Shown piece after piece: positions 8,630 to 42,840 of a stretch of DNA of 64,000 nucleotides. The DNA is taken from assembly GCA_963839295.1 (NCBI GenBank), contig CAWIUK010000002.1, positions 186,330 to 250,329 on the forward strand, written 5' to 3'. The notes beneath the pieces were generated by a model, which was given only the letters and a program-made list of their open reading frames with translations, was not told the DNA's origin and did not search any database. The stretch comes from an uncultured Acidobacteriota bacterium (GTDB taxonomy: Bacteria; Acidobacteriota; Thermoanaerobaculia; UBA5066). A program made the position numbers and the translations under genes. The first letter of the stretch is position 1. Each line of letters begins with the position of its first letter.

Positions 8630-9330
8630 GGCTTCACGGCCCGCATCAGGATGCGATACCGGAACGTCTCCCCGACGAGCGGGAGCGGCGCGAGCGCGCC
8701 CTCGACGAGACGGACGAGCGGGAACGGCGAGACGGACCACGTGTCGAGCGCGAGCCGGAAGCCCGCGTCCGAAAGGAAGCCGCGGTACGCCCGGGCCCGA
8801 CGGACCGCAATGTGCTGCGGGAACTGCTTCAGGACGACGTCGTGTGCCTTGAGCCGCTCGACGTAGTGCGCCCGGTCCGGCGTGTAGAGCCCGAGGCGCC
8901 CGCCCGCCCTCAGGACGCGGCGCGACTCGGCGAGCATCGCCGCGAGCGTCGGGTCGTCGACGTGCTCGACGAGGTCGATCGCCGCGACGGCGTCGAACGA
9001 GGCGTCGGCGAACTGCGAGAGGTCCGCGACGTCGCCCTTCGCGAACGAGACGTTGCCGATTCCGTTCGCGAGGCGGGCGTGCTCGGCCAGTTCGAGCGCG
9101 TCGTCCGAGGCGTCGAGGCCGACGACGTCCCGGACGTGCCGCGCGAGGAAGAACGTGACGTCGCCGCGCGCCGAGCCCAGCTCGAGGACGCGGTCGGAGG
9201 GGCGGGCGTCGATGACCCTGAGGGCGTCCCGGTTCCGCTCCTCGTACTTGCGCGGCGGGTTCGTGAACCAGTGGCTCTTGTGGAGCCCCGCGAAGTACTC
9301 CGGATCGTAGAGGTGGCCCTCGAACGTCAC
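8626..9330 (-). CDS. Class I SAM-dependent methyltransferase (paralog A)
   Basis: VLELGSARGD motif I, DAVAAIDLVEHV and LRAGGRLGLYTP. 234 aa. Confidence 0.8.
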   Translation of the reverse strand: MTFEGHLYDPEYFAGLHKSHWFTNPPRKYEERNRDALRVIDARPSDRVLELGSARGDVTFFLARHVRDVVGLDASDDALELAEHARLANGIGNVSFAKGDVADLSQFADASFDAVAAIDLVEHVDDPTLAAMLAESRRVLRAGGRLGLYTPDRAHYVERLKAHDVVLKQFPQHIAVRRARAYRGFLSDAGFRLALDTWSVSPFPLVRLVEGALAPLPLVGETFRYRILMRAVKP

Positions 9331-26520: not shown

Positions 26521-27078
26521 TCAGGCGATCCCGAGGATCCGCCTGCCTTCGGGCGTCATCATCTCCGCGCTCCACGGCGGGTCCCACACGAGCTGGACCT
26601 CGGCCTCCCTGACGCCCGGCACCCGCGCGACGCGGGACTGCGCGTCGGCGGCGATCGCGGGGCCCATCCCGCAGCCGGGCGCCGTCAGGGTCATCTTCAC
26701 CTCGACGCGCGTGCCGCCCTTCTCCGCGGCGAGGACGCGCAGGTCGTAGACGAGGCCGAGGTCCACGATGTTCACGGGGATCTCGGGGTCGTAGACGGTC
26801 TTGAGGGAGTCCCACAGCGAGTCCTCGCTGACGGGGCCGACGGCGGAAGCGGGCGCGTCGTCCGCGGCCCCCGCCGTGATGCCGAGGGCGTCCCCATTCT
26901 CTCCGGAGATGCGGAAGAGCCCGCCGAGTTCGGGCGCCTGCACGGTGAGCGTCCCGCCGAGCGACTGCGTCAGGAAGACGTCCGTGCCGGCCTTGAGCAT
27001 GACGGGGTCGCCCGACGGGATCCGGATGGCCGGGCAATCGCGCGAGAGCTGGTGGGCGGTGGGAACCTGCGGTGTCAT
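26521..27078 (-). CDS. sufT: SufT-like Fe-S assembly protein (C-terminal DUF59/MIP18 domain)
   Basis: From ATG 27078: VYDPEIPVNIVDLGLVY and MTLTAPGCGMG motifs. ATGA overlap with the MFS stop. Confidence 0.8.
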   Translation of the reverse strand: MTPQVPTAHQLSRDCPAIRIPSGDPVMLKAGTDVFLTQSLGGTLTVQAPELGGLFRISGENGDALGITAGAADDAPASAVGPVSEDSLWDSLKTVYDPEIPVNIVDLGLVYDLRVLAAEKGGTRVEVKMTLTAPGCGMGPAIAADAQSRVARVPGVREAEVQLVWDPPWSAEMMTPEGRRILGIA

Positions 27079-28274
27079 GGGGTGGACTCCTCCGCGCGCG
27101 GCGGCGCGTCTCCATTCTCCTTCAGGAGGCCCGCGGCGGAAAGGACGAGCGCGCCGCCCTGCAGCGCGGCCGCGGCCCAGTGCGGGGCGTCGGGGCCGAC
27201 GCGCAGGTAGAGGTTCTCTCCGGCGAACGGACCGAACACGCGGCCGAGCGAGGCCATGGACTGGTAGGCCCCGAGGATCTCGCCCTGTTCGGTCGCCGCC
27301 GTGCGGCGCGAAACGAGGGACGACAGCGTGGGCGTCGTAATCCCGATGCCGAGCGCGATGACGGCGATCGCCGCGAGGAGGCGCGGGACGGTCGTCCCGA
27401 ACCGCAGCGCGAGAAAGCCCGCGATCAGGAGGACGCAGCCGGCCATCACGAGGCGCGCCTCGCCGAAGCGCGGCGCGAGCCGGCGGACGATGCCGCCCTG
27501 GACGACGACCGAGCACACGCCGACGAAGACGAAGAACCACGCGACCGTGGACGGCCCCGTCCCGAGACGGAGCGAGAGGAACTGCGCGAACGTGGACTCG
27601 AAATTCGCGAAGGCGGTCGTCGTCACGAAGGAGAGGAGCATCAGGGCGCCGATCTCCGGGCGGCGGAATGCCTTGAGGAGCGAGCCCGTCGAGAAGAGGG
27701 GAACCGACGGCGCGACCGTTCCCGCTGGCCGCGTCTCGGGGAGGCGGAAGAAGGCCCAGAGGCACGCGGTCGCCGAGAGCGCGGCCGCGAACAGGCCGGG
27801 CGCGGATTCGCCGAGCCGAACGGAGAAGCCGCCGATCGCGGGCCCGAAGATGAAGCCGAGGCCGAACGCGATCCCGACCATCGCCATCCCGCGCGTGCGT
27901 TCGGAGGGCGCCGTCGAGTCCGCGATGACGGCTTGCGCGGTCCCGATGTTCCCGCCCGTCGCGCCGGGGAGGAGGCGGGCGACGAAGAGCATCGGGAGCG
28001 AGCGCGCGAACGCGAAGAGAAGGTAGCCGACCACCGTCCCGAGGAGCGAGAAGATGATCACGGGGCGCCGCCCGTACCGGTCCGAGAGTCGGCCGAGGAG
28101 GGGCCCGAAGATGAACTGCATCGCGGAGTAGCTCGACATCAGGAGCCCGAACGCGAGCGCGGACGGGTGGTATTTCTCCGCGTAGAGAGGCAACAGCGGG
28201 ATCACGATCCCGAAGCCGAGGAGGTCGATGAAGACCGTCAGGAAGACGATCTTCAGGATGGAGCGGTCGTTCAG
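27075..28274 (-). CDS. MFS transporter (Tet/TCR-like); only plausible start is CTG 28274
   Basis: C-terminal 399 codons of ORF 27075..33719: ILKIVFLTVFIDLLGFGIVIPLLP and GRLSDRYGRRPV (MFS motif A). No ATG/GTG/TTG lies between the erpA stop and TM1. Confidence 0.8.
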   Translation of the reverse strand: MNDRSILKIVFLTVFIDLLGFGIVIPLLPLYAEKYHPSALAFGLLMSSYSAMQFIFGPLLGRLSDRYGRRPVIIFSLLGTVVGYLLFAFARSLPMLFVARLLPGATGGNIGTAQAVIADSTAPSERTRGMAMVGIAFGLGFIFGPAIGGFSVRLGESAPGLFAAALSATACLWAFFRLPETRPAGTVAPSVPLFSTGSLLKAFRRPEIGALMLLSFVTTTAFANFESTFAQFLSLRLGTGPSTVAWFFVFVGVCSVVVQGGIVRRLAPRFGEARLVMAGCVLLIAGFLALRFGTTVPRLLAAIAVIALGIGITTPTLSSLVSRRTAATEQGEILGAYQSMASLGRVFGPFAGENLYLRVGPDAPHWAAAALQGGALVLSAAGLLKENGDAPPRAEESTP

Positions 28275-28642
28275 CTGAAGGATTTTCCGCAGCCGCAGCC
28301 GGACGTCGCGTTCGGGTTCTCCACGGCGAAGCCCGCTCCGCGCATGTCCTCGACGAAGTCCACGGTGGAGCCGTGGAGCTTGAGCGCGCTCGCCGGATCG
28401 ACGACGACCTCGATGTCCTTCACGGCGAGGACGTGGTCCGTCGGCCTCTTGTCGTCGAACGTGAAGCCGTACTGGAAGCCGGAGCATCCTCCGCCCTGGA
28501 TGAAGACGCGCAGCGGCTTGTTCGCGGCGTCGGGCATCTTCGAGGCGAATTCCTTCACCTTCGCGACGGCGCGATCCGTCACGCTGAGAACGAAGACGGA
28601 CGGGGACACGACCTGCGTGGCGGTCTCGGGAGCGCTGGACAT
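28271..28642 (-). CDS. erpA: Iron-sulfur cluster insertion protein ErpA/IscA (HesB family)
   Basis: Trimmed to ATG 28642 (GGAGGA 7 nt upstream). GGGCSGFQYGF and the C-terminal GCGCGKSFS motif. Confidence 0.9.
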   Translation of the reverse strand: MSSAPETATQVVSPSVFVLSVTDRAVAKVKEFASKMPDAANKPLRVFIQGGGCSGFQYGFTFDDKRPTDHVLAVKDIEVVVDPASALKLHGSTVDFVEDMRGAGFAVENPNATSGCGCGKSFS

Positions 28643-28976
28643 TGACTGGTCCTCCATCGGCGCGCGCGCCGCCTGTGGAATATGGCCGCGAACACCCGCG
28701 GAAGTCAAACGGGCGAGAGGGGTTGCGTATTCCCACAGCCCGTGAAAAACCCCACCATCTAGTGGCCTCTTCGTGTAAAAACACTATCCCTTGCGTTTTC
28801 CCCTTGAAATTCGATCTCAGCGGCACTACCTTGTTCGACAGACCTGACAACGACCCGGCGATCGCGAACAGTCGTCTTCCCCGGTCAGACGAAGGGCCAG
28901 AGGTGCCGCCGGGTGGCGGCAAAAAGAGGACAAACCGCTCACGTCCGAGGAAAGTGAGAGGAAGGCGTTTCCGTCC

Positions 28977-31916
<2,940 letters not shown>

Positions 31917-31958
31917 TGTGAGGCGCGGCGCGCCCGTGGTGCGAGACTGAGCGCACGC

Positions 31959-33713
31959 ATGGTGCGGCGCGCGTTCGGCGCCTTCGGCGCGGTGCAGACG
32001 TTCTTCTGGCTCGCGCGCCGGGACCGGTTCGAAGTCCTTTTCTGGTTCACGGGGGAGTCGTGGCTCTACGTCCTGCTCCTCTGGCTGAAGGACCTCGCGC
32101 TCGCGGCCGCCGCGGGCTGGATCGCGGCGAGGCTCCTGGCGCTCGTCACGGAAGCGGCCGCGCGCGAGGAGCGTGAGCCCTCTCCGCCGCTCCGGCCGCT
32201 CGCCGAGGCGGCGTGGGTCGTCCCGGCCCTCGCGCTCGGCGTCGTCCTGCGATGGGTCTTTGCGGCGTGGAACCCGCCGGGGCTCTGGGTCGACGTCGTC
32301 TACGCGGCGCGGCCGCTCTTCGGCGGCGCTCCTCCGCCGCTGTGGGGCGCCTCGCCGTTCGGGGAGAACCCGGCGAGTTCCGAGGTCGTGTCCAACCTGT
32401 ACGTCGGATTCGTGCGCGGCGTCTTCGCGCTCTTCGGGAGCGGCGAGACGGGCTTTTTCGCGATCTCCGCCCTGCCGGGCAGCCTCGCGGTCCCGGCCGC
32501 CTGGTGGCTCGCGCGAGAAGCGTCCGGCCCGCGGACCGCGGCCGTCGCGGCCGTGCTCGGCGCGCTGCTCGGGTGGCCTCTTCTCCTGTCGCGCTGGTCG
32601 TCGACGGCGGCGCTGCTCCTCGTCCTCGTCCTCGTGGGAGCCGCGGCGACGCTGCGCGCCCGTCGCACCGGAAGCCTCGCGCTCGCCGCGCTCGCCGGAG
32701 CGTGCGTCGGCCTCTCGCTCCACACCCACGCGTCCGCCGGCGCGGTCGCGGCGGGTTTCGCCGCGTTCGCTCTTCTGGAAATGCGGCGCGCCCCGTCCCG
32801 GCGGCTCGTCCTCGCGGCTGCGGCGGCCGCGGCGCTGGCGTTCGCGCCGCTCGCCTGGGCGTTCACGGCGGGCGACAGCCGCCTCGGAGGGCACCTGCGC
32901 GACGTCCACGTCGGGACGCCCGTGAAAGGCGTGGACGCGCCGCACGCCCCCGGCGTTCTCCGCCTGCCCGCGGATCTCGCCGCGAACGCGCTCGAGTACA
33001 CGGGCGTCCTTCTCTGGACGCGCGACCCGAACCTGCGTCACGCGGGGGGGCGGGGCGTCATGACGCCGCTCGTCGGCGCCGCCGCGCTCCTGGGGTTCGG
33101 CCTCGCGGCCTCGCGGCGGCGGCCCGCGGACGTTTTCCTCCTGCTCCTGGCGGGCGGAAGTCTCCTCGCGGGCATCCTGTCGAACCCCGGCGGCTCGCCG
33201 AACACGCTGCGCGTGGCGGCGCTCGCCGTCCCGGCAGCGCTCTTCGCGGCCGCCGTCCTCGACGCCGCGATCGCCGCCGCCGCCCGCGCCGGCGCGGCCT
33301 CGCGGGCCGTCCTCGTCGCGGGCCTCGCGGCGGCCCTGTTCGCCGCGGAGTCGCTGCCCGTCCTCGTGGATCTCCCCGGCGCGAGCGCACGATTCTGCGG
33401 CGCGGAGACCGACGCGGGCCGGCTCCTCGGGCGTCTCGCGGAGGCGCCCGTCGTCGAGGAGACCGGAGCGTTTCTCCACCCGGTCGTCGTCGAGGCGGTC
33501 GCGCACGGGGCGGACCGCGGCCTCCCGCTGACCTCTTTCGCGAGGAAAACGCCCGCCGGGATTCTCGCGTCGAGGCCCCCGGGCTCCTTCTGGGTGCTCG
33601 CGTCGCGCCGCGGCCTCGCGACGCTCGCGGCGGGCGGCCTCAGGTGCGGGCGCGGAATCGAGCCGGGTGGAGGCGCCGGCGTTCTCCTCGCGCGGGTGAA
33701 GCCGCGCGGTTGA
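31959..33713 (+). CDS. Polytopic membrane protein, possibly a GT-C-type glycosyltransferase
   Basis: More than 10 hydrophobic helices and a soluble C-terminal region. The family assignment is weak. Confidence 0.5.
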   Translation: MVRRAFGAFGAVQTFFWLARRDRFEVLFWFTGESWLYVLLLWLKDLALAAAAGWIAARLLALVTEAAAREEREPSPPLRPLAEAAWVVPALALGVVLRWVFAAWNPPGLWVDVVYAARPLFGGAPPPLWGASPFGENPASSEVVSNLYVGFVRGVFALFGSGETGFFAISALPGSLAVPAAWWLAREASGPRTAAVAAVLGALLGWPLLLSRWSSTAALLLVLVLVGAAATLRARRTGSLALAALAGACVGLSLHTHASAGAVAAGFAAFALLEMRRAPSRRLVLAAAAAAALAFAPLAWAFTAGDSRLGGHLRDVHVGTPVKGVDAPHAPGVLRLPADLAANALEYTGVLLWTRDPNLRHAGGRGVMTPLVGAAALLGFGLAASRRRPADVFLLLLAGGSLLAGILSNPGGSPNTLRVAALAVPAALFAAAVLDAAIAAAARAGAASRAVLVAGLAAALFAAESLPVLVDLPGASARFCGAETDAGRLLGRLAEAPVVEETGAFLHPVVVEAVAHGADRGLPLTSFARKTPAGILASRPPGSFWVLASRRGLATLAAGGLRCGRGIEPGGGAGVLLARVKPRG

Positions 33714-33719
33714 CCGCAC

Positions 33720-34893: not shown

Positions 34894-36531
34894 ATGACTC
34901 TGTCCCGGATCCCCTTCCACCGGCGGCTCGGGTTCAAGATCACCGCAACCGCGGCCGCGGCGATCCTCGTGCCCGTCGCGATCGTCGCGGCCGTGACGAT
35001 CCGCGCCCAGCACGAAGAGCTCGTCGCGCGGGCCCAGGGGAGCGCCGCGATCCTGTCCGAGACCGTCCGGAGCGCGACGCACGACTTCATGCTCAAGGAC
35101 CAGCGGGAGGACGCGTACCGGATCGTCGAGATCGTCGGGCACGAGAGCCTCCGCAAGGACAGCTCGATCGAGAGCGTGCGGATCTTCAACAAGCAGGGCG
35201 CGACGGTGTACTCGACGGACCGTTCGGAGATCGGGCGCGTCGCCGACAAGCGCGCGGACGTCTGCGCGCCGTGTCACGGCGGGGCGGGCGCGCCCGTCAC
35301 GAACCCGGACCCGGAGACGCGCAGCCGGATCACGACGTCGGGCGGCCACCGGATCCTCTCGTTCGTGACGCCGATCTACAACGAAGCCGACTGCGCCTCC
35401 TCCGGGTGCCACGCCTCCCCGAAGGACCAGCGCGTCCTCGGCCTCCTCGACGTCGCGCTCTCCCTCAAGGAGGTCGACGACCGCCGCGCCGCCGCGACCT
35501 GGCGGATCGTGGGCCTCTCGCTCCTCGCGCTCGTCGTCCTCACGGCGCTCGTGACCGCGATCGTCCGCGTGCTCGTGCTCCGCCCCGTCTCGGACATGCT
35601 CGCGGCGACCCGGGACCTCGCCCACGGCGGCACGCCCGGACCCCTCAGGGTCCGCTCGCACGACGAGCTCGGAATGCTCGCGGGCTCGTTCAACGAGATG
35701 AGCGCCTACCTGAGGTACGCGCGCGACCGCCTCGAGGCGGCGGCGGGCGACCTCGAGCGCCAGGTCGAGGAGCGGACGGCGGCCCTCCGGCAGGCGCAGG
35801 ACGCGCTCGCCCAGAGCGAGAAACTCGCCTCGCTCGGGACGCTCTCCGCCTCGATCGCGCACGAGATCAACAACCCGCTCGCCGGGATCCTCACGTTCGC
35901 GCGCCTCATGTCGCGCACGCTCGAGTCCGGCGAGGTCGACGACGCCGCGCGCGCCGCGTGCCTGAAGAACCTCGGCCTCATCCAGCGCGAGACCGAGCGC
36001 TGCACGCGGATCGTGCGGAGCCTCCTCGACTTCGCGCGCGCACGGCCGATCGAGCTCAACGACGTGGACGCGACGTCCGCGCTCGACGAGGCGGTCTCCC
36101 TGACGCAGCACAAGCTCCAGCTGCAGCAGGTTGTCGTGGCGAAGAACGTCGACGGTCCGGCCGTCGTCCGGGGGGACTACGGCCAGCTCCGCCAGGTCTT
36201 CGTGAACCTGATCCTGAACGCGTGCGACGCGATGCCGAAGGGCGGGACGCTCTCCGTCACGTCCCGGAAGGTCGACTCCGGACGCGCCGTCGAGATCGAG
36301 TTCGCGGACACGGGCACGGGCATCGCGCCCGAGCACCTCTCGCGCATTTTCGACCCCTTCTTCACGACGAAAGAGATGGGAACGGGCCTCGGGCTCTCCG
36401 TCGTCTACGGCGTCGTCGAGAAGCACGGCGGGTCCATGAAGGCGCAGAGCCGCCTCGGCGAAGGGACCACGATGACGGTGCGGCTGCCGCTCGCCGGGGA
36501 GGCGGCGGCGCCGGCGGGCGCCGCCGCGTGA
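34894..36531 (+). CDS. Sensor histidine kinase (HAMP-HisKA-HATPase) with two c-type heme motifs in the periplasmic loop
   Basis: TM1 around residues 15-37 and TM2 around 202-228. CAPCH (residues 124-128) and CASSGCH (167-173) lie between them. H-box SIAHEINNPLAG, N-box NLILNACDAM, G-boxes DTGTGI and GTGLGLS. Confidence 0.9.
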   Translation: MTLSRIPFHRRLGFKITATAAAAILVPVAIVAAVTIRAQHEELVARAQGSAAILSETVRSATHDFMLKDQREDAYRIVEIVGHESLRKDSSIESVRIFNKQGATVYSTDRSEIGRVADKRADVCAPCHGGAGAPVTNPDPETRSRITTSGGHRILSFVTPIYNEADCASSGCHASPKDQRVLGLLDVALSLKEVDDRRAAATWRIVGLSLLALVVLTALVTAIVRVLVLRPVSDMLAATRDLAHGGTPGPLRVRSHDELGMLAGSFNEMSAYLRYARDRLEAAAGDLERQVEERTAALRQAQDALAQSEKLASLGTLSASIAHEINNPLAGILTFARLMSRTLESGEVDDAARAACLKNLGLIQRETERCTRIVRSLLDFARARPIELNDVDATSALDEAVSLTQHKLQLQQVVVAKNVDGPAVVRGDYGQLRQVFVNLILNACDAMPKGGTLSVTSRKVDSGRAVEIEFADTGTGIAPEHLSRIFDPFFTTKEMGTGLGLSVVYGVVEKHGGSMKAQSRLGEGTTMTVRLPLAGEAAAPAGAAA

Positions 36532-37071
36532 ACGAGGTCCTCCTCCTGTGGATCGGGCAGAAGGAACCCGCCCCGGACCTCCTCGACGGCGTCCACCGGA
36601 GCGTCGCGCGCGAGTTCGAGGTGCCCGTGCGCCTGCGCGTCTCGCCGGACCGGCCCGGGGACGCCTTCGACCCGCGCCGGGGGCAGCACTCCTCCACGCG
36701 GATCCTCGCGTGGCTGAAGGACCGGCACGACGGGGCGCGCCGGGTCCTCGGCGTCACGGACGCCGACCTGTTCATCCCGATCCTGACCTTCGTGTTCGGC
36801 GAGGCGCAGCTCGGCGGCCGCGCGGCCGTCGTCTCGACGGCCCGCCTCGGCGACACGCCGCTGATCCCCGGCGAGGCGGCGCGCATCGCCCTGCGCCTCC
36901 AGAAGGAAGCCGTTCACGAGCTCGGACACACCTTCGGCCTCCTGCACTGCGCCGACGCGCGCTGCGCGATGGCGCGCTCGCCCAGCCTGAGGCACGTCGA
37001 CGCGAAGTCCCCCGCCCTCTGCCGCACCTGCCGCGCGCGAACCCGCGAACTCTCGGAAAACGGAGACGTCC

Positions 37072-38466
<1,395 letters not shown>

Positions 38467-38586: not shown

Positions 38587-38602
38587 TGGCCCGGTCCGTG
38601 CA
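38587..38602 (+). promoter_or_regulatory. Sigma-54 (-24/-12) promoter
   Basis: TGGCCCGGTCCGTGCA compared with consensus TGGCACG-N4-TTGCW. The GG and GC dinucleotides have the correct spacing. Located directly downstream of a sigma-54 activator gene. Confidence 0.55.
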
Positions 38603-38616
38603 ACCCCTTCGTCGCC

Positions 38617-38874
38617 ATGTTGAACGACACCACGACCGCCTGCCCCTGGCTGAAGCAAGTGGTGATGCTCTATTGCGACGCCTGCCCGACCAAGAAGATG
38701 GTCCCGAAAGACCAGCTCGTGTCGCAGGGTCCGTGCCTCACGGGTTCCTTTGCGGAGTGCGCCATGTACCGCGAGATGGTCAAGAGGATCGAGGCAGGCG
38801 CCGCCGCCGCTGATGTTGCCGTTGACACGGAGGCGAGCCGCAAGGCCGCTTCCGGGAGGGAGGTCCCGTCATGA
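38617..38874 (+). CDS. Small cytoplasmic Cys-rich protein of unknown function
   Basis: 85 aa. Cys at positions 9, 20, 23, 40 and 48 (CPW..YCDAC..PC..EC). No signal peptide. First gene after the -24/-12 element, with no SD. Confidence 0.6.
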   Translation: MLNDTTTACPWLKQVVMLYCDACPTKKMVPKDQLVSQGPCLTGSFAECAMYREMVKRIEAGAAAADVAVDTEASRKAASGREVPS

Positions 38875-38954
38875 TCGCCACCGTCCCGCTCGCCGTCCTC
38901 GCCGTCCTGACTCTTCTTGCGATGGCCCATCACAGCCGGGTCCGCCCCGCGTAA
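38871..38954 (+). CDS. 27-aa single-TM micro-ORF (MIATVPLAVLAVLTLLAMAHHSRVRPA)
   Basis: ATGA overlap with the upstream stop. GGGAGGGAGG ends 5 nt upstream of the ATG. Mostly G/C third positions. Its TAA lies inside the next gene's AAGGAG. Confidence 0.4.
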   Translation: MIATVPLAVLAVLTLLAMAHHSRVRPA

Positions 38955-38967
38955 GGAGAGAGTGACG

Positions 38968-39873
38968 ATGAACCTGAACCGCCGCAACCTGTTCCAGATC
39001 GCCGGCGCCGCGGGCGCGGCCACGATCGCGGGCCGCGCCCTCTCGTCGGCGACGACGCGCAGCGCCGCCAAAGACGCCGTCGGCGTCCTCGTGGACACGA
39101 CGCGCTGCGTCGGCTGCCGCGCCTGCGAAGCCGCGTGCTCCGAGGCGAATGGCCTCGCCGGGCCCGAGAAGCCGGGCGACGACACCGTGTTCGCGTCGCG
39201 CCGCCGGACCTCCCCCACGAGCTTCACGGTCGTGAACAAGTCGGCCGAGAAGAGCCCGAGCGGCGAGGACCGTTACGCGAAGACGCAGTGCATGCACTGC
39301 GTGACCCCCGCGTGCGCGTCCGGCTGCGTCGTCAAGGCGCTCGAGAAGACGGCCGCCGGGCCGGTCGTGTACCACGAGGACCGTTGCCTCGGCTGCCGCT
39401 ACTGCATGATCGCGTGCCCCTTCGGCGTTCCGAAGTACGAGTACACGAAGGCGGCCCCCCTCGTGCGCAAATGCACGTTCTGCGCGGCGCGCCAGGAAAA
39501 GGGCCTGCCGCCCGCCTGCACCGACGCGTGCCCCTCGGGCGCGCTCACGTTCGGAAAGCGGGCCGACCTCCTCGAGGAGGCCAGGACCCGCATTTACCAG
39601 AACCCCGGCAAGTACGTCCACGAGATCTACGGAGAGGACGAAGCCGGCGGCACGAGCTGGCTGTACATCTCGGACGTCTCCGCGGCGAGCCTCAACCTCC
39701 CGCAGGACATCGTGAAGAAACCCTACCCCGAGATGGCGGACGGCGCGCTCTCGGCCGTCCCGTTCATCGTGACCTTGTGGCCGCCCCTCCTCATGGGCCT
39801 CTACACCTTCAGCAAGCGCCGCGACGACGTCGCCGGACGCGAAAACGGACAGAAGGGAGCCGGCCATGAGTGA
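38968..39873 (+). CDS. Tat-exported 4x[4Fe-4S] ferredoxin-type subunit (HybA/DsrO/NrfC-like) with C-terminal TM anchor
   Basis: Trimmed to ATG 38968 (AAGGAGAG upstream). NRRNLFQIAG twin-arginine signal. CVGCRACEAAC, CMHCVTPACASGC, CLGCRYCMIACP and CTFC..CTDACP clusters. C-terminal AVPFIVTLWPPLLMGLYTF. Confidence 0.88.
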   Translation: MNLNRRNLFQIAGAAGAATIAGRALSSATTRSAAKDAVGVLVDTTRCVGCRACEAACSEANGLAGPEKPGDDTVFASRRRTSPTSFTVVNKSAEKSPSGEDRYAKTQCMHCVTPACASGCVVKALEKTAAGPVVYHEDRCLGCRYCMIACPFGVPKYEYTKAAPLVRKCTFCAARQEKGLPPACTDACPSGALTFGKRADLLEEARTRIYQNPGKYVHEIYGEDEAGGTSWLYISDVSAASLNLPQDIVKKPYPEMADGALSAVPFIVTLWPPLLMGLYTFSKRRDDVAGRENGQKGAGHE

Positions 39874-41089
39874 GACCTTCGACCGCGTCGCGGTTTCGAC
39901 CCTCGTTCGCGAAAAGGTCCTCCTCGGGATGGAACCGAAGGCATACGCGAAGAGCCTGCTGACGAAGACGAACGCGATCTTCGCGGCGATCCTCCTCGTC
40001 GGCCTCCCGACGATCGCCTACCGGTTCTGGAAGGGCATGGGCGCGGTGAGCAACCTCTCCCAGACGAACCCGTGGGGCCTCTGGGTCGCGTTCGACGTCG
40101 TCTGCGGCGTCGCGCTGGCCGCCGGCGGCTACACGGTGGCCGCGGCCGTCTACCTGTTCGGTCAGAAGCAGTTCGCCCCGGTCCTGAGGCCCGCGATCCT
40201 CACCGGCTTCCTCGGCTACCTCTTCGTCCTCGTCGGCCTCGTCGTCGACCTCGGCCAGCCCTGGCGGCTCCCCTACCAGTTCTTCCTCACGCCCGGGACG
40301 ACCGCCGTCATGTACGAGGTCGGCTGGTGCGTGTTCCTGTACCTGATGGTCCTCGCCCTCGAGTTCCTCCCGGCGGCGCTCGAGTGGCTCGGGATGACGA
40401 AGGTCCGGCGTTTCATGAGCGCGATCTCGATCGCGATCATCGTCCTCGGCGTCACGCTCTCGACCCTCCACCAGTCCTCGCTCGGCGCCTTCTTCCTCAT
40501 GTCGCCCGGCAAGCTCCACCCCCTGTGGTACTCGCCGTTCCTCCCGATCTTCTTCTTCGTGTCGTCGATCGCGGCGGGCATCGGCATGGTCATCTTCGAG
40601 AGCTCGGTCTCGCACCGGGCGTTCCAGGACCAGCTCGACCCCGAAGCGCACGTCGACATGGACGCCCTCCAGCTCGGGCTCGCCAAGGGCGGCGCGGTCG
40701 TCCTCTTCGCCTACTTCTTCGTCCGCCTCCAGGGCCTCGTCGCGAGCGGCCGGTGGGACCTCCTCCTGACCGGCTGGGGCGCGTGGTACGCCCTCGAGAT
40801 GCTCGGCTTCGTCCTGCTGCCGTCGCTCCTCTTCGCCTTCGCGGTGAGGACGCAGAGCGCGCGGCTCGCGCGCGCCGCCGGCGTCATGACGGTCCTCGGC
40901 GTCGTCCTCAACCGCTTCAACGTCGCGCTGATCGCGTTCAACTGGAACGTGCCCGACCGGTACGTTCCCGCGCTCGGCGAGATCGTCATCTCGGTCACGA
41001 TCGTCACGCTCGGCGTCCTCGTGTTCCGCTGGATCGTCAACCGCATGCCGGTGCTCCACGAGCATCCGGAATGGCGCGGCGTCCACTGA
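39866..41089 (+). CDS. NrfD/PsrC-family (HybB/DsrP-like) quinone-interacting membrane subunit
   Basis: 407 aa, about 10 TM helices. NPWGLWVAFDVVCGVALAAGGY motif. 8-nt overlap with the upstream gene. Confidence 0.88.
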   Translation: MSETFDRVAVSTLVREKVLLGMEPKAYAKSLLTKTNAIFAAILLVGLPTIAYRFWKGMGAVSNLSQTNPWGLWVAFDVVCGVALAAGGYTVAAAVYLFGQKQFAPVLRPAILTGFLGYLFVLVGLVVDLGQPWRLPYQFFLTPGTTAVMYEVGWCVFLYLMVLALEFLPAALEWLGMTKVRRFMSAISIAIIVLGVTLSTLHQSSLGAFFLMSPGKLHPLWYSPFLPIFFFVSSIAAGIGMVIFESSVSHRAFQDQLDPEAHVDMDALQLGLAKGGAVVLFAYFFVRLQGLVASGRWDLLLTGWGAWYALEMLGFVLLPSLLFAFAVRTQSARLARAAGVMTVLGVVLNRFNVALIAFNWNVPDRYVPALGEIVISVTIVTLGVLVFRWIVNRMPVLHEHPEWRGVH

Positions 41090-41108
41090 AAGAGGAGAGA
41101 GGAAACTC

Positions 41109-41774
41109 ATGCACGCCAACGACGTCCTCAGCCCTCACGCCACCAAGGCCATCGAGTACCTGCTCGCGGTCTCGTACCTCCTGCTCTTCATCCCCTTCTG
41201 GCGCTTCGTGAACGGCGCGTCGGTCGCGCAGGCCTTCGCGACGGGCTGGTTCCAGGTCCCGGAAAACGTCCACCTGCACCGCGGCCACTCCTGGGCGAAG
41301 ACGTTCGGCGGCGCGGTCGCGGTCGGCCTCGACGACTTCGCCCACAAGCTGATCGGCCCGCTCGACGCCGTCCAGCTCCCCGCGGTCGGCACGTCGCTCC
41401 GCCAGGGCCAGAAGGCCTTCACGGTCGTCGCCGACGGCAGGCCCTTCGACGTCGTCTCGCCCGTCGACGGGAACGTCGTCGCGGTGAACGAGGTCGTCCG
41501 CGCGCACCCCGCCGACGCGGTCCGCGACCCCTACGGCACGGGCTGGCTCCTGAAGGTCGAGCCCCGCTGGCTGACCGCGAACATCAAGAACCTCGTCTCG
41601 GGCGATGCCGCCCGCCGCTTCCTCGACGCGGCCGCCGAAGTCCTCGCGGGCCGTATGAGCCCCGAGCTCGGCGTCGTCCTCCAGGACGGCGGCACGCCGG
41701 TCCACGGGATCGCCCGCGAGATCGACCCGGAGCACTGGGACTCGCTCGTCCGCACGTCCCTCCGGGGCGAGTGA
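41109..41774 (+). CDS. Membrane-anchored GcvH-fold (barrel-sandwich) protein lacking the lipoyl-lysine
   Basis: N-terminal TM AIEYLLAVSYLLLFIPFWRFV. GHSWAK..VGLDDFAHKLIGP..LPAVG..VVSPVDGNVVAVN..DPYGTGWLLKV resembles GcvH. Confidence 0.7.
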   Translation: MHANDVLSPHATKAIEYLLAVSYLLLFIPFWRFVNGASVAQAFATGWFQVPENVHLHRGHSWAKTFGGAVAVGLDDFAHKLIGPLDAVQLPAVGTSLRQGQKAFTVVADGRPFDVVSPVDGNVVAVNEVVRAHPADAVRDPYGTGWLLKVEPRWLTANIKNLVSGDAARRFLDAAAEVLAGRMSPELGVVLQDGGTPVHGIAREIDPEHWDSLVRTSLRGE

Positions 41775-41784
41775 GGAGGACGCC

Positions 41785-42132
41785 ATGAACACCCTCCTCC
41801 GCTTCCTCGCGGCGACGCTCCTCCTCGCCCTTTCCACGACGCTCGACGCGGGGGCGCTGCCGAACCTCCCGAAGGACCTGGCGCTCCCGCAGGGCGACGG
41901 CAGCCCGGGCGTCGTCACCTTCCGCCACGACGCGCACGTCGACGCCTCGCGGCCCGACTGCACGACCTGCCACCCGAAACTCTTCCCCATCGTCAAACGC
42001 ACCGCCTCTTCGGCCGCCCCCGCCGCGATCCGCCACGCCGACATGGAAAAGGGCAAGAGCTGCGGCTCCTGCCACGACGGCAAGAGCGCCCACGGCCTCG
42101 ACGACTGCGGGACGTGCCACCAGGCCAAGTGA
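41785..42132 (+). CDS. Periplasmic triheme c-type cytochrome (c7/c3-like)
   Basis: Signal peptide plus CTTCH, CGSCH and CGTCH in a 115-aa protein. Confidence 0.85.
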   Translation: MNTLLRFLAATLLLALSTTLDAGALPNLPKDLALPQGDGSPGVVTFRHDAHVDASRPDCTTCHPKLFPIVKRTASSAAPAAIRHADMEKGKSCGSCHDGKSAHGLDDCGTCHQAK

Positions 42133-42141
42133 GGTGACGTC

Positions 42142-42840
42142 ATGACGCCTCTCGAATTCCTCCAGCTCGCCGGCATCTTCCTCGCGGGTCTCGTCGTCCG
42201 GATCCTCGCCTTCACCCTCGTGATCGCGGTCTGCACGCTCCCGATCATCGCCGCCTGGGCGCTCTGGCGAGCGTGGCAGATGATGCGCGACCGGCGCATC
42301 GGCCTCGTCGACATCGCGGGGCTCGAGTTCGCCGAGGCGCACCATTACGCGCCCGGCCACACGTGGCTCGCGCGGAAGAGCCGCGGCACGGTCCGCGTCG
42401 GCCTCGACGAGATCGCGGGCCGGCTCCTCCATGCGCCGACGAGCGTCTCGCTTCCGCGGCCGGGGACCGTCCTCGCCGCCGGCCTCCCCGCCGCCACCGT
42501 GAACTGCGGCGGCCGCTCGGCCACGCTCTCCGCCCCGGTGTCGGGCACCGTCGTCGCGATCAACCCCAGGGTCCTGCGGGACCCCGCGCTCCTCGAGGAG
42601 TCGCGCTACCGCAACGGCTGGCTCTTCTCGATGAAACCCGCGACGGCTTCGTTCCTCACGCTCCCGACCGGCGCCGCCGCGCGCTCCTGGTTCCAGGACG
42701 AGACGGCGCGCTTCTCGCACGCGCTCGAGACCGAGCTCGGCCTTCTTGCGGCCGACGGCGGCGAGCTCGTCGTCGAGGCGCCCGCGCTGCTGTCCGAGGA
42801 GAAGTGGCAGCGTCTCGTCTCGGAGTTCCTGAAGGGCTGA
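42142..42840 (+). CDS. Membrane-anchored GcvH-fold protein lacking the lipoyl-lysine (paralog 2)
   Basis: Hydrophobic N-terminus (residues about 6-43), then RAWQMMRDRR. GHTWLA..VGLDEIAGRLL..LPRPG..LSAPVSGTVVAIN..YRNGWLFSMKP. Confidence 0.7.
   Translation: MTPLEFLQLAGIFLAGLVVRILAFTLVIAVCTLPIIAAWALWRAWQMMRDRRIGLVDIAGLEFAEAHHYAPGHTWLARKSRGTVRVGLDEIAGRLLHAPTSVSLPRPGTVLAAGLPAATVNCGGRSATLSAPVSGTVVAINPRVLRDPALLEESRYRNGWLFSMKPATASFLTLPTGAAARSWFQDETARFSHALETELGLLAADGGELVVEAPALLSEEKWQRLVSEFLKG

Follow-up and report, generated by a model that had tools for sequence, protein, structure and literature searches.

A seven-gene operon and its regulators

Within a 64-kb window of acidobacterial DNA (contig CAWIUK010000002.1, from an uncultured member of the Thermoanaerobaculia; G+C about 72%) lies an operon of seven closely spaced open reading frames (ORFs), on the forward strand from 38617 to 42840, preceded by three regulator genes (Table 1); "the window" denotes throughout the whole stretch of 64,000 nucleotides. 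Three of the operon's products, an iron-sulfur (FeS) protein, an NrfD-type membrane protein and a trihaem cytochrome, make up a respiratory core of known type. The other four, to which we refer as the accessory proteins, appear to be new: a small four-cysteine protein (Cys85), a 27-residue peptide with a single transmembrane (TM) helix, and two membrane-tethered proteins that combine the fold of the glycine cleavage H-protein (GcvH) with a C-terminal tail bearing a DGG motif (GcvH-like 1 and GcvH-like 2). The nearest relatives of the locus are found in metagenome-assembled genomes of Thermoanaerobaculia (Acidobacteriota), and GcvH-like 1 is 84-94% identical to the corresponding proteins of loci L001-L008.

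A first-pass annotation, made from the sequence without database searches, had described seven same-strand ORFs separated by overlaps or gaps of at most 19 nucleotides, and all of them were recovered on the forward strand, with successive junctions of -4, +13, -8, +19, +10 and +9 nucleotides. The start of the FeS gene was taken as the ATG at 38968, which is preceded by the Shine-Dalgarno sequence AAGGAGAGAG; the mechanical ORF begins at 38917. Third-position G+C is 0.85-0.98 in all called genes and distinguishes them from spurious ORFs. A very long minus-strand ORF at 27075-33719 (2214 amino acids) and many others are artefacts of the 72% G+C.

The operon is predicted to be sigma-54-driven, as the first-pass annotation had also supposed, on the strength of a conserved promoter motif and an adjacent activator gene. 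The element TGGCCCGGTCCGTGCA is the sole TGGC-N8-TGCA in the window, where 0.31 occurrences are expected by chance; it follows the pattern TGGCCC-N5-GTGCA with a spacing that fits the -24 GG / -12 GC arrangement, and the gene of the enhancer-binding protein lies directly upstream of the operon. In 53 of 58 related loci a TGGC-N7/8-TTGC element immediately precedes the Cys85 homologue. From the -12 element to the ATG of Cys85 there are 15 nucleotides and no Shine-Dalgarno sequence in between, so that a near-leaderless transcript is expected; the short spacing (about 6-25 nucleotides) recurs in most related loci. Downstream of 42840 on the forward strand no intrinsic terminator was found.

Of the regulators, the kinase has two TM helices around a periplasmic domain, followed by its HAMP, HisKA and catalytic domains. 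In an alignment of 16 orthologues from several phyla, two motifs of the periplasmic domain, AExCxxCH and NE..Cx4CH.H, are invariant, and the sensor domain probably carries haem c; the haem-sensor kinase of the first-pass annotation thus has a conserved periplasmic CxxCH as its predicted attachment site. The Cx4CH.H motif (CASSGCHAS in the window) might serve as a further, non-standard site for haem attachment or for a metal. The archaemetzincin-like gene (hereafter M54), absent from the first-pass annotation, overlaps both the kinase and the activator genes, and its product has an intact HExxHxxGxxH site (HELGHTFGLLH), a C-terminal Cys4 motif and no signal peptide.

Table 1. Features of the operon and its regulator genes, in window coordinates
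Feature	Position	Strand	Evidence or description
Sensor histidine kinase	34894..36531	+	Pfam HAMP, HisKA, HATPase_c
Archaemetzincin-like Peptidase_M54	36528..37109	+	PF07998 1.4e-18; gene called, with Pfam annotation, on the identical public contig
NtrC-type sigma-54 enhancer-binding response regulator	37072..38466	+	Sigma54_activat 5.4e-70, Response_reg 3.7e-31, HTH_8 5.7e-15
Predicted sigma-54 promoter (-24 TGGC / -12 TGCA)	38587..38602	+	Motif TGGCCCGGTCCGTGCA
Cys85	38617..38874	+	Four-Cys small protein, no Pfam or NCBIfam family
27-residue single-TM micro-protein	38871..38954	+	Positively charged C-terminus
HmcB/HybA-type FeS subunit	38968..39873	+	Fer4_11 8.5e-19, weak TAT_signal match
HmcC/NhcC/HybB-type NrfD membrane subunit	39866..41089	+	Pfam NrfD 3.2e-21
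GcvH-like 1	41109..41774	+	Pfam GCV_H 2.1e-17
c7-type trihaem cytochrome	41785..42132	+	Pfam Cytochrome_C7 1.6e-14
GcvH-like 2	42142..42840	+	Pfam GCV_H 1.2e-17

The genes around the operon encode a CARDB-like secreted protein, a zinc-ribbon protein, a holin-family membrane protein and large membrane proteins. In agreement with the first-pass annotation, which had noted the lack of a molybdopterin-like, hydrogenase, DsrMK or HdrD-like partner, no gene for a hydrogenase, a molybdopterin protein, a cytochrome b, DsrMK or an HdrD-like/CCG protein was found in or beside the operon. Hydrogenase genes, including HybO, HybC and maturation genes, are absent from all predicted genes of the window.

Respiratory core and accessory proteins

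Profile hidden Markov models match each of the principal products that the first-pass annotation had recognised from the sequence, namely the FeS protein with its twin-arginine translocation (Tat) signal, the NrfD subunit, the cytochrome with three CXXCH motifs and the TM-anchored pair of GcvH fold. In sequence, the FeS and NrfD proteins come closest to HmcB and HmcC, and the core resembles the catalytic-subunit-less cytochrome c:menaquinone oxidoreductases of the Nhc/Hmc type. The FeS protein combines a Tat signal (RRNLFQ) and four cysteine motifs for [4Fe-4S] clusters with a TM anchor in its C-terminal tail, after which comes KRR. It matches NCBIfam HmcB over its full length (1.1e-106, 356 bits, just under the equivalog cut-off of 420) and HybA second (1.7e-69, 234 bits); it is 37% identical to Escherichia coli HybA, signal peptide included, and its best PDB match is FdnH (1KQF_B). 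The NrfD protein, which has no haem motifs, matches HmcC over positions 2-375 of 376 (2.5e-154, 514 bits, just under the equivalog cut-off of 550), with HybB next (9e-83, 279 bits) and QrcD and DsrO distant; a PDB sequence search with it gave no match. It is 30% identical to E. coli HybB across 381 residues and retains HybB R89, Y99, E148 and H184 as R108, Y118, E166 and H202. Replacement of any of these four residues in HybB impairs proton-coupled hydrogen oxidation (PMC8076601), and the window protein has a putative quinone site and proton pathway.

The cytochrome, of 115 amino acids with a Sec signal peptide, has the haem motifs CTTCH, CGSCH and CGTCH and passes the cut-off of NCBIfam TIGR04257 for the c7-type trihaem domain (67.7 bits; cut-off 40). 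In the PDB it is best matched by the c7-type domains of 3OV0, a protein of the cytochrome c family, with the motif DMEKGKSCG.CH in common. The Qrc and Dsr families fit the window proteins poorly. Scores against the Qrc families are 68 bits for QrcC (cut-off 400), 87 for QrcD (570) and 24 for QrcA, and there is no QrcB; DsrO is matched at 96 bits (cut-off 200), the NrfD protein does not match DsrP, and no DsrM or DsrK gene is present. In or beside the operon there is likewise no ORF corresponding to HmcE, a cytochrome b, or to HmcF, which is cytoplasmic and HdrD-like.

A module of FeS protein, NrfD protein and cytochrome lacking a catalytic subunit is not new in itself, since NhcABCD and Geobacter Cbc4 have already been described. 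NhcABCD is a cytochrome c3:quinone oxidoreductase composed of a multihaem cytochrome, a protein with four [4Fe-4S] clusters, an NrfD-like protein and a small subunit, with no catalytic subunit (PMC8076601). The first-pass annotation had been unable to match the composition of the operon to any characterised complex. This does not hold for the core, which is HmcB/HmcC-like and Nhc-like; for the accessory set it does, and a literature search covering open-access papers found no description of the accessory and regulatory genes.

Cys85 has four invariant cysteines, C9, C20, C40 and C48 (CP-x9-C-x19-C-x7-C). Its relatives number 812, all of them small and unnamed among the 120 matches listed, and domains of this type have no signal peptides. 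The AlphaFold2 model of Cys85, built on a 60-sequence alignment, is too poor for a fold search (predicted local distance difference test, pLDDT, 53.7; predicted TM-score, pTM, 0.27). For the 27-residue ORF, as for Cys85, Pfam and NCBIfam returned no family match. In several phyla, nevertheless, most loci have a hydrophobic ORF of 22-33 residues in the interval from the Cys85 to the FeS gene, diverged in sequence and constant in frame and character, and this conservation of position and reading frame despite sequence divergence indicates that it encodes a real micro-protein.

The AlphaFold2 model of GcvH-like 1 (67-sequence alignment, pLDDT 87.5) consists of a TM helix at about residues 9-34, a disordered linker, a GcvH barrel at 54-160 and four extra C-terminal helices at 165-219. 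By Foldseek it superimposes on the Thermus thermophilus H-protein 1ONL with a TM-score of 0.90, a root-mean-square deviation of 1.7 A and an E-value of 3.8e-13. The Foldseek matches are soluble H-proteins and biotinyl domains, and no solved membrane complex with a subunit of GcvH fold was found among them. In the TM helix Y17, F27 and W31 are invariant and R32 nearly so. GcvH-like 2 is a paralogue (32% identity) in which a long N-terminal hydrophobic segment is followed by RAWQMMRDRR, the barrel and the C-terminal extension. Both proteins exceed the gathering threshold of Pfam GCV_H and score 73 and 66 bits against NCBIfam GcvH, below its cut-off of 117. The family NF045810, 'GcvH-related protein', was considered and rejected (24-39 bits; cut-off 150).

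The structural motifs of GcvH (HxW, DD(F/Y)A, PxxG, DPYGxGW) are retained, and a profile alignment to Mycobacterium tuberculosis GcvH places a glycine in the column of the lipoyl-lysine, so that a conventional role as lipoyl carrier is impossible. The next residue is arginine in both window proteins and K, R, Q, H or G among relatives. The C-terminal helical extension, of about 55 residues, contains QDGG in GcvH-like 1 and ADGG in GcvH-like 2. GcvH-like 1 has no cysteine at all; GcvH-like 2 has one (C112 region, NCGGR) at the hairpin tip, two positions ahead of the former lipoyl-lysine. This cysteine is kept in the types found in Thermoanaerobaculia, Rokubacteria and Nitrospinota and in several fusions of Cys and GcvH domains. 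It is absent in Anaeromyxobacter and Vicinamibacterales, and on that account we rejected it as a universal catalytic residue.

The placement of the accessory proteins on the cytoplasmic side of the membrane is well supported by sequence features. Across 101 relatives the count of lysine and arginine rises from 0 ahead of the TM helix to 3.2 over the next 25 residues, and these positive-inside counts, with the RAWQMMRDRR that follows the helix of GcvH-like 2, put the GcvH domains in the cytoplasm. Both properties attributed to these proteins in the first-pass annotation, that they cannot be lipoylated and that they probably face the cytoplasm, are upheld.

The gene set in other genomes

A scan of one genome per GTDB species with the GcvH-like 1 alignment as query yielded 80 loci, to which tblastn with the window proteins was then applied; they are spread over Thermoanaerobaculia, Holophagales, Vicinamibacterales, Anaeromyxobacter (with the cultured carriers A. 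oryzae, A. oryzisoli and strain PSR-1), Rokubacteria/Methylomirabilis, Nitrospinota and Gemmatimonadota. Counting for each gene only the loci with enough flanking sequence to show it, an NrfD gene lies directly upstream of GcvH-like 1 in 72 of 80 loci, the FeS gene is present in 62 of 63, the c7 cytochrome in 61 of 70, Cys85 in 57 of 62 and a pair of GcvH-like genes in 49 of 53. The figures for the regulators are 54 of 57 for the sigma-54 activator and 50 of 54 for the kinase, and the M54 gene stands between kinase and activator in 50 of 54 loci, while two others have it immediately behind the activator. The accessory proteins keep company with kinase and activator genes at least as tightly as with respiratory genes. 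Synteny extends over Acidobacteriota, Myxococcota, Methylomirabilota/Rokubacteria, Nitrospinota and Gemmatimonadota, and the accessory and regulatory genes are, to judge from these comparisons, a cassette conserved across at least five phyla. Fortuitous adjacency, for which the first-pass annotation had proposed a gene-neighbourhood check, is excluded by these counts.

Further forms of the cassette came to light in a profile search with Cys85 against 1.84 billion representative proteins, which returned 268 relatives, many of them 240-370 residues long. In the long relatives a GcvH-like domain, again with the helical DGG tail, is joined to a single Cys85-type domain or to two of them, and because of such fusions in other lineages, Cys85 and GcvH-like domains are expected to act together physically. 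One such fusion (locus L087) also bears an N-terminal receiver domain, which works only in the cytoplasm and thus places the fused domains there. Between the Cys85-type and GcvH-like domains of some proteins (P0395, P0400, P0360, P0392 and L112 14138-14962) there is a second Cys-rich module, C-x12-C-x5/6-C-x2-C-E-F/Y, often in tandem, which has no Pfam family and is absent from the window.

A metagenome scan with the fusion family added 80 further loci. Where the flanks suffice, 22 of 24 loci of this family combine FeS and NrfD genes with a second GcvH-like gene and a convergent activator-M54-kinase set. Among the contexts of the fusion proteins, locus L083 has a Cys2-GcvH fusion, a TM peptide ending in TMADGGE, kinase, sigma-54 activator, an 8-haem cytochrome, a second TM peptide with the DGG tail and an HmcB-like FeS protein; L087 has kinase, activator, a 59-residue ORF, FeS, NrfD, M54 and the receiver-Cys-GcvH fusion. 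At L112, a soil metagenome locus from that scan, the respiratory genes are instead of the Qrc type, with QrcA at 202 bits (cut-off 180), QrcD at 563 (570), QrcC and a QrcB-like protein, and the operon is flanked by a TM-DGG peptide, a Cys2-GcvH fusion and a TM-Cys-GcvH protein, with kinase, M54 and activator genes present. At L161 two FeS-NrfD sets with cassette genes share one metagenome contig (250-5840 and 9343-14950), of which one, with 43% and 39% identity, is nearer to the window type, whereas the other is Qrc-like.

Two loci carry the cassette in other company. L085 has a sigma-54-like promoter, a TM-DGG peptide, a Cys2-GcvH fusion and then activator, M54 and kinase genes, with no FeS or NrfD gene within 9 kb. 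At L086 (400-6900, minus strand) M54, activator, Cys-GcvH and PAS kinase genes adjoin HdrC/HdrB/HdrA-like genes; the divergently transcribed neighbours, HdrC-, HdrB- and HdrA-like, FlpD and HycI-like genes, stand in place of the NrfD complex. The M54 gene is part of every fusion-type locus examined, L085, L086, L087 and L112 among them.

The first-pass annotation had taken the GcvH-like proteins to stand in place of a catalytic partner. This part of it fails: the same set occurs beside a Qrc-type complex that has its own QrcB, and also in units with no NrfD gene nearby, and the GcvH-like proteins are therefore not substitutes for such a partner.

Eight orphan TM-GcvH genes of Anaeromyxobacter-type genomes have varying neighbours, with no FeS or NrfD genes among them (orphan units occur at L042, L051, in two copies, L052, L054, L063, L064, L071 and L074). 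Each is preceded by a 25-residue TM micro-ORF (MMFAFALAL...) and a sigma-54-type promoter, with a motif score of at least 9 in 7 of 9 cases versus 2.2% of random windows. Conserved partner genes around these orphans were sought and rejected, the micro-ORF and the sigma-54 motif being all that they have in common. Small single-TM proteins ending in LG.TMADGGE, the same DGG motif as in the C-terminal extension of the GcvH-like proteins, lie at L083 8890-9108 and 13046-13309, L085 about 8741-8990 and L112 about 8700-8997. TM helix, GcvH barrel, Cys domain and DGG tail have evidently been reshuffled between lineages via gene fusion and fission.

Interpretation and comparison with known systems

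How might such an assembly work? By homology, the core would shuttle electrons between the periplasmic cytochrome pool and menaquinone. The secreted c7 trihaem cytochrome would exchange electrons with the tail-anchored, HmcB-like protein of four [4Fe-4S] clusters, which would dock onto the HmcC/HybB-like NrfD subunit; the latter would bind quinone and, to judge from the proton-coupling residues kept from HybB, handle the protons, and a separate catalytic subunit would not be required, as in NhcABCD. The NtrC-type activator, phosphorylated by the haem-c kinase, would switch on the sigma-54 promoter, and since the periplasmic domain of the kinase probably carries haem c, expression would track the periplasmic redox state. 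The accessory proteins, the archaemetzincin-like peptidase and the kinase/activator pair would together form a portable cassette, whose task would be either to inform the two-component system of the condition of the membrane module or to gate that module from its cytoplasmic side.

We infer a regulatory or adaptor module in the accessory proteins, rather than a set of electron carriers that would take over from a catalytic subunit, because these proteins accompany different respiratory cores, keep the company of kinase, M54 and activator genes, occur at loci lacking NrfD and are in one case fused to a receiver domain. The reading as a whole, an Hmc/Nhc-type core under the control of a haem-c kinase and sigma-54, with the accessory proteins as its cytoplasmic regulatory or adaptor module, seems to us somewhat better founded than an even guess. 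A bolder generalization, by which the Cys domain, the GcvH/DGG proteins, the TM micro-peptides, M54 and the haem-c kinase and activator constitute an unrecognised portable signalling or gating system for NrfD-type cytochrome c:quinone complexes, we offer tentatively, as a possibility that may well prove wrong.

Several observations weigh against this interpretation. The matches to HmcB and HmcC both fall short of their equivalog cut-offs, and the sole cytochrome of the operon is a trihaem c7, as against the 9- or 16-haem subunits of Nhc and Hmc. The regulatory role leans on few cases, namely a single fusion to a receiver domain and two or three loci with no NrfD gene in the vicinity, and it is gene linkage and conserved TM helices that suggest a physical link between the GcvH-like proteins and the NrfD protein. 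The conservation of the GcvH-like 1 helix suits a permanent structural subunit as well as it does a regulator, and the four invariant cysteines of Cys85 could hold an FeS cluster, in which case a redox role would be likelier than a regulatory one.

These last two points lead to the alternatives. It is conceivable, though on the whole unlikely, that the accessory proteins belong permanently to the NrfD complex as supernumerary structural subunits, or that they serve its assembly and maturation: the GcvH-like TM helices and the small TM peptide would pack on HmcC, the Cys85 and GcvH domains would stabilise or chaperone the complex, and M54 would be a maturation protease, like HybD for hydrogenase 2. 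The invariant or nearly invariant residues of the GcvH-like 1 helix agree with this, as do the translational coupling of the accessory genes within the structural operon, the linkage to NrfD (72 of 80 loci, and 22 of 24 of the fusion type) and the precedent of small hydrophobic extra subunits in Nhc and Hmc (NhcD; PMC8076601). Desulfovibrio-type Nhc and Qrc, however, work without such proteins according to the same review (PMC8076601), the cassette is found also where no NrfD gene is near, a receiver domain has been joined to it in one case, and M54 is usually encoded in the regulator operon rather than in the structural one. We give still less credence to a cytoplasmic redox or sulfur module, in which Cys85 would bind an FeS cluster, the GcvH-like domains would be carrier or docking proteins, and the whole would be a transmembrane Dsr/Hmc-like complex for a cytoplasmic thiol/disulfide or sulfur substrate, after the manner of DsrK-DsrC or sHdr LbpA. 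Such a module would make sense of the Cys85 cysteines, of the extra Cys-rich modules in related fusion proteins, of the hairpin-tip cysteine in GcvH-like 2 of the window and several lineages, and of the one fusion-type locus beside HdrB/HdrC/HdrA-like genes, and carriers of GcvH fold are reported to serve sulfur oxidation in sHdr systems (PMC6067878). It is weakened because NrfD subunits are haem-free and no cytochrome b is encoded, which leaves no evident transmembrane route for electrons, because the lipoyl-lysine is absent, and because the hairpin cysteine is missing from the Anaeromyxobacter and Vicinamibacterales orthologues and GcvH-like 1 is cysteine-free.

That the GcvH-like domains are periplasmic and work with the c7 cytochrome and the FeS subunit appears very improbable. 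Their genes are interleaved with the cytochrome gene, and GcvH-like 1 of the window has a single arginine directly after its TM helix; the charge distribution over the 101 relatives (0 before, 3.2 after), the RAWQMMRDRR of GcvH-like 2 and the fusion of homologous domains with a receiver domain and with Cys domains devoid of signal peptides all point the other way. Hardly any weight attaches to the idea that the genes are neighbours by accident and some of the small ORFs artefacts. Although high-G+C DNA does yield many long spurious ORFs, synteny across five phyla is already enough to refute it, and the conserved micro-ORF and the third-position G+C speak against it too. The cytoplasmic regulatory or adaptor module remains our preferred account of the accessory proteins.

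NrfD-type complexes (Qrc, Nhc/Hmc, alternative complex III, Psr, Dsr) are central to anaerobic respiration, and their regulation and cytoplasmic face are poorly understood. The present data show an unnamed set of proteins to be genetically tied to a dedicated sensor/activator pair and to NrfD-type cytochrome c:quinone modules of two different kinds. If the signalling or gating system exists, it would control respiratory modules in a new way, at both the transcriptional and the post-translational level, and would reuse the lipoyl-carrier fold without lipoate. About 800 database clusters annotated as 'glycine cleavage system H protein' are mislabelled, in that they have no lipoyl-lysine and sit in a respiratory or regulatory context. 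The carriers of the cassette include abundant lineages of soil and sediment (Thermoanaerobaculia, Vicinamibacterales, Rokubacteria, Nitrospinota) as well as cultured Anaeromyxobacter, A. dehalogenans among them, in which genetics is feasible.

Among known systems, the core is most readily set beside Nhc and Hmc of Desulfovibrio, with which it shares a Tat-exported, tail-anchored periplasmic FeS protein, a haem-free NrfD protein, a periplasmic multihaem cytochrome and a small hydrophobic peptide; like Nhc, it has no catalytic subunit and neither HmcE nor HmcF. It differs in its 115-residue c7 cytochrome, where NhcA has 9 haems and HmcA 16, and in its host, a thermoanaerobaculian acidobacterium and not a sulfate reducer. 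The Nhc and Hmc subunits listed in the review PMC8076601 do not include Cys85, a TM-GcvH-like pair or the kinase/M54/activator set. The HybA-HybB pair of E. coli hydrogenase 2 is alike in Tat signal, tail anchor and the four HybB residues R89, Y99, E148 and H184, whereas the window has a c7 cytochrome instead of HybO and HybC. With QrcABCD, a cytochrome c3:menaquinone oxidoreductase, the operon has its functional logic in common, and the same accessory and regulator set is found at Qrc-type loci such as L112; the window, however, lacks a QrcB-like protein of molybdopterin fold and matches QrcC and QrcD weakly.

Two systems of Geobacter come close in other respects. Cbc4 (CbcSTU) of G. sulfurreducens is by its description also a combination of a cytochrome c, a protein of four [4Fe-4S] clusters and an NrfD-type protein without a catalytic subunit, but its CbcS is a membrane-anchored tetrahaem cytochrome of the NapC/NirT type. 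The cbcBA/bccR system, a precedent for the regulation proposed here, is a quinone oxidoreductase operon under a sigma-54 promoter and an activator of the response-regulator type, and it too starts with small hypothetical genes, but CbcBA is a pair of cytochrome bc-type proteins; for neither system have GcvH-like subunits been reported. GcvH itself and LbpA, the lipoate-binding protein of sHdr systems, have the fold of the window's GcvH-like proteins, which differ from them in the N-terminal TM helix, the DGG-bearing C-terminal extension, the missing lipoyl-lysine and a genomic context unrelated to glycine cleavage or sHdr. In logic, the proposed cassette would resemble GlnK-AmtB and PspA/B/C-PspF, where a membrane protein is bound by a small cytoplasmic one, or the state of the membrane is signalled to a sigma-54 activator, and the genes of effector and regulator lie together; the likeness would be one of function, with no relationship in sequence or fold.

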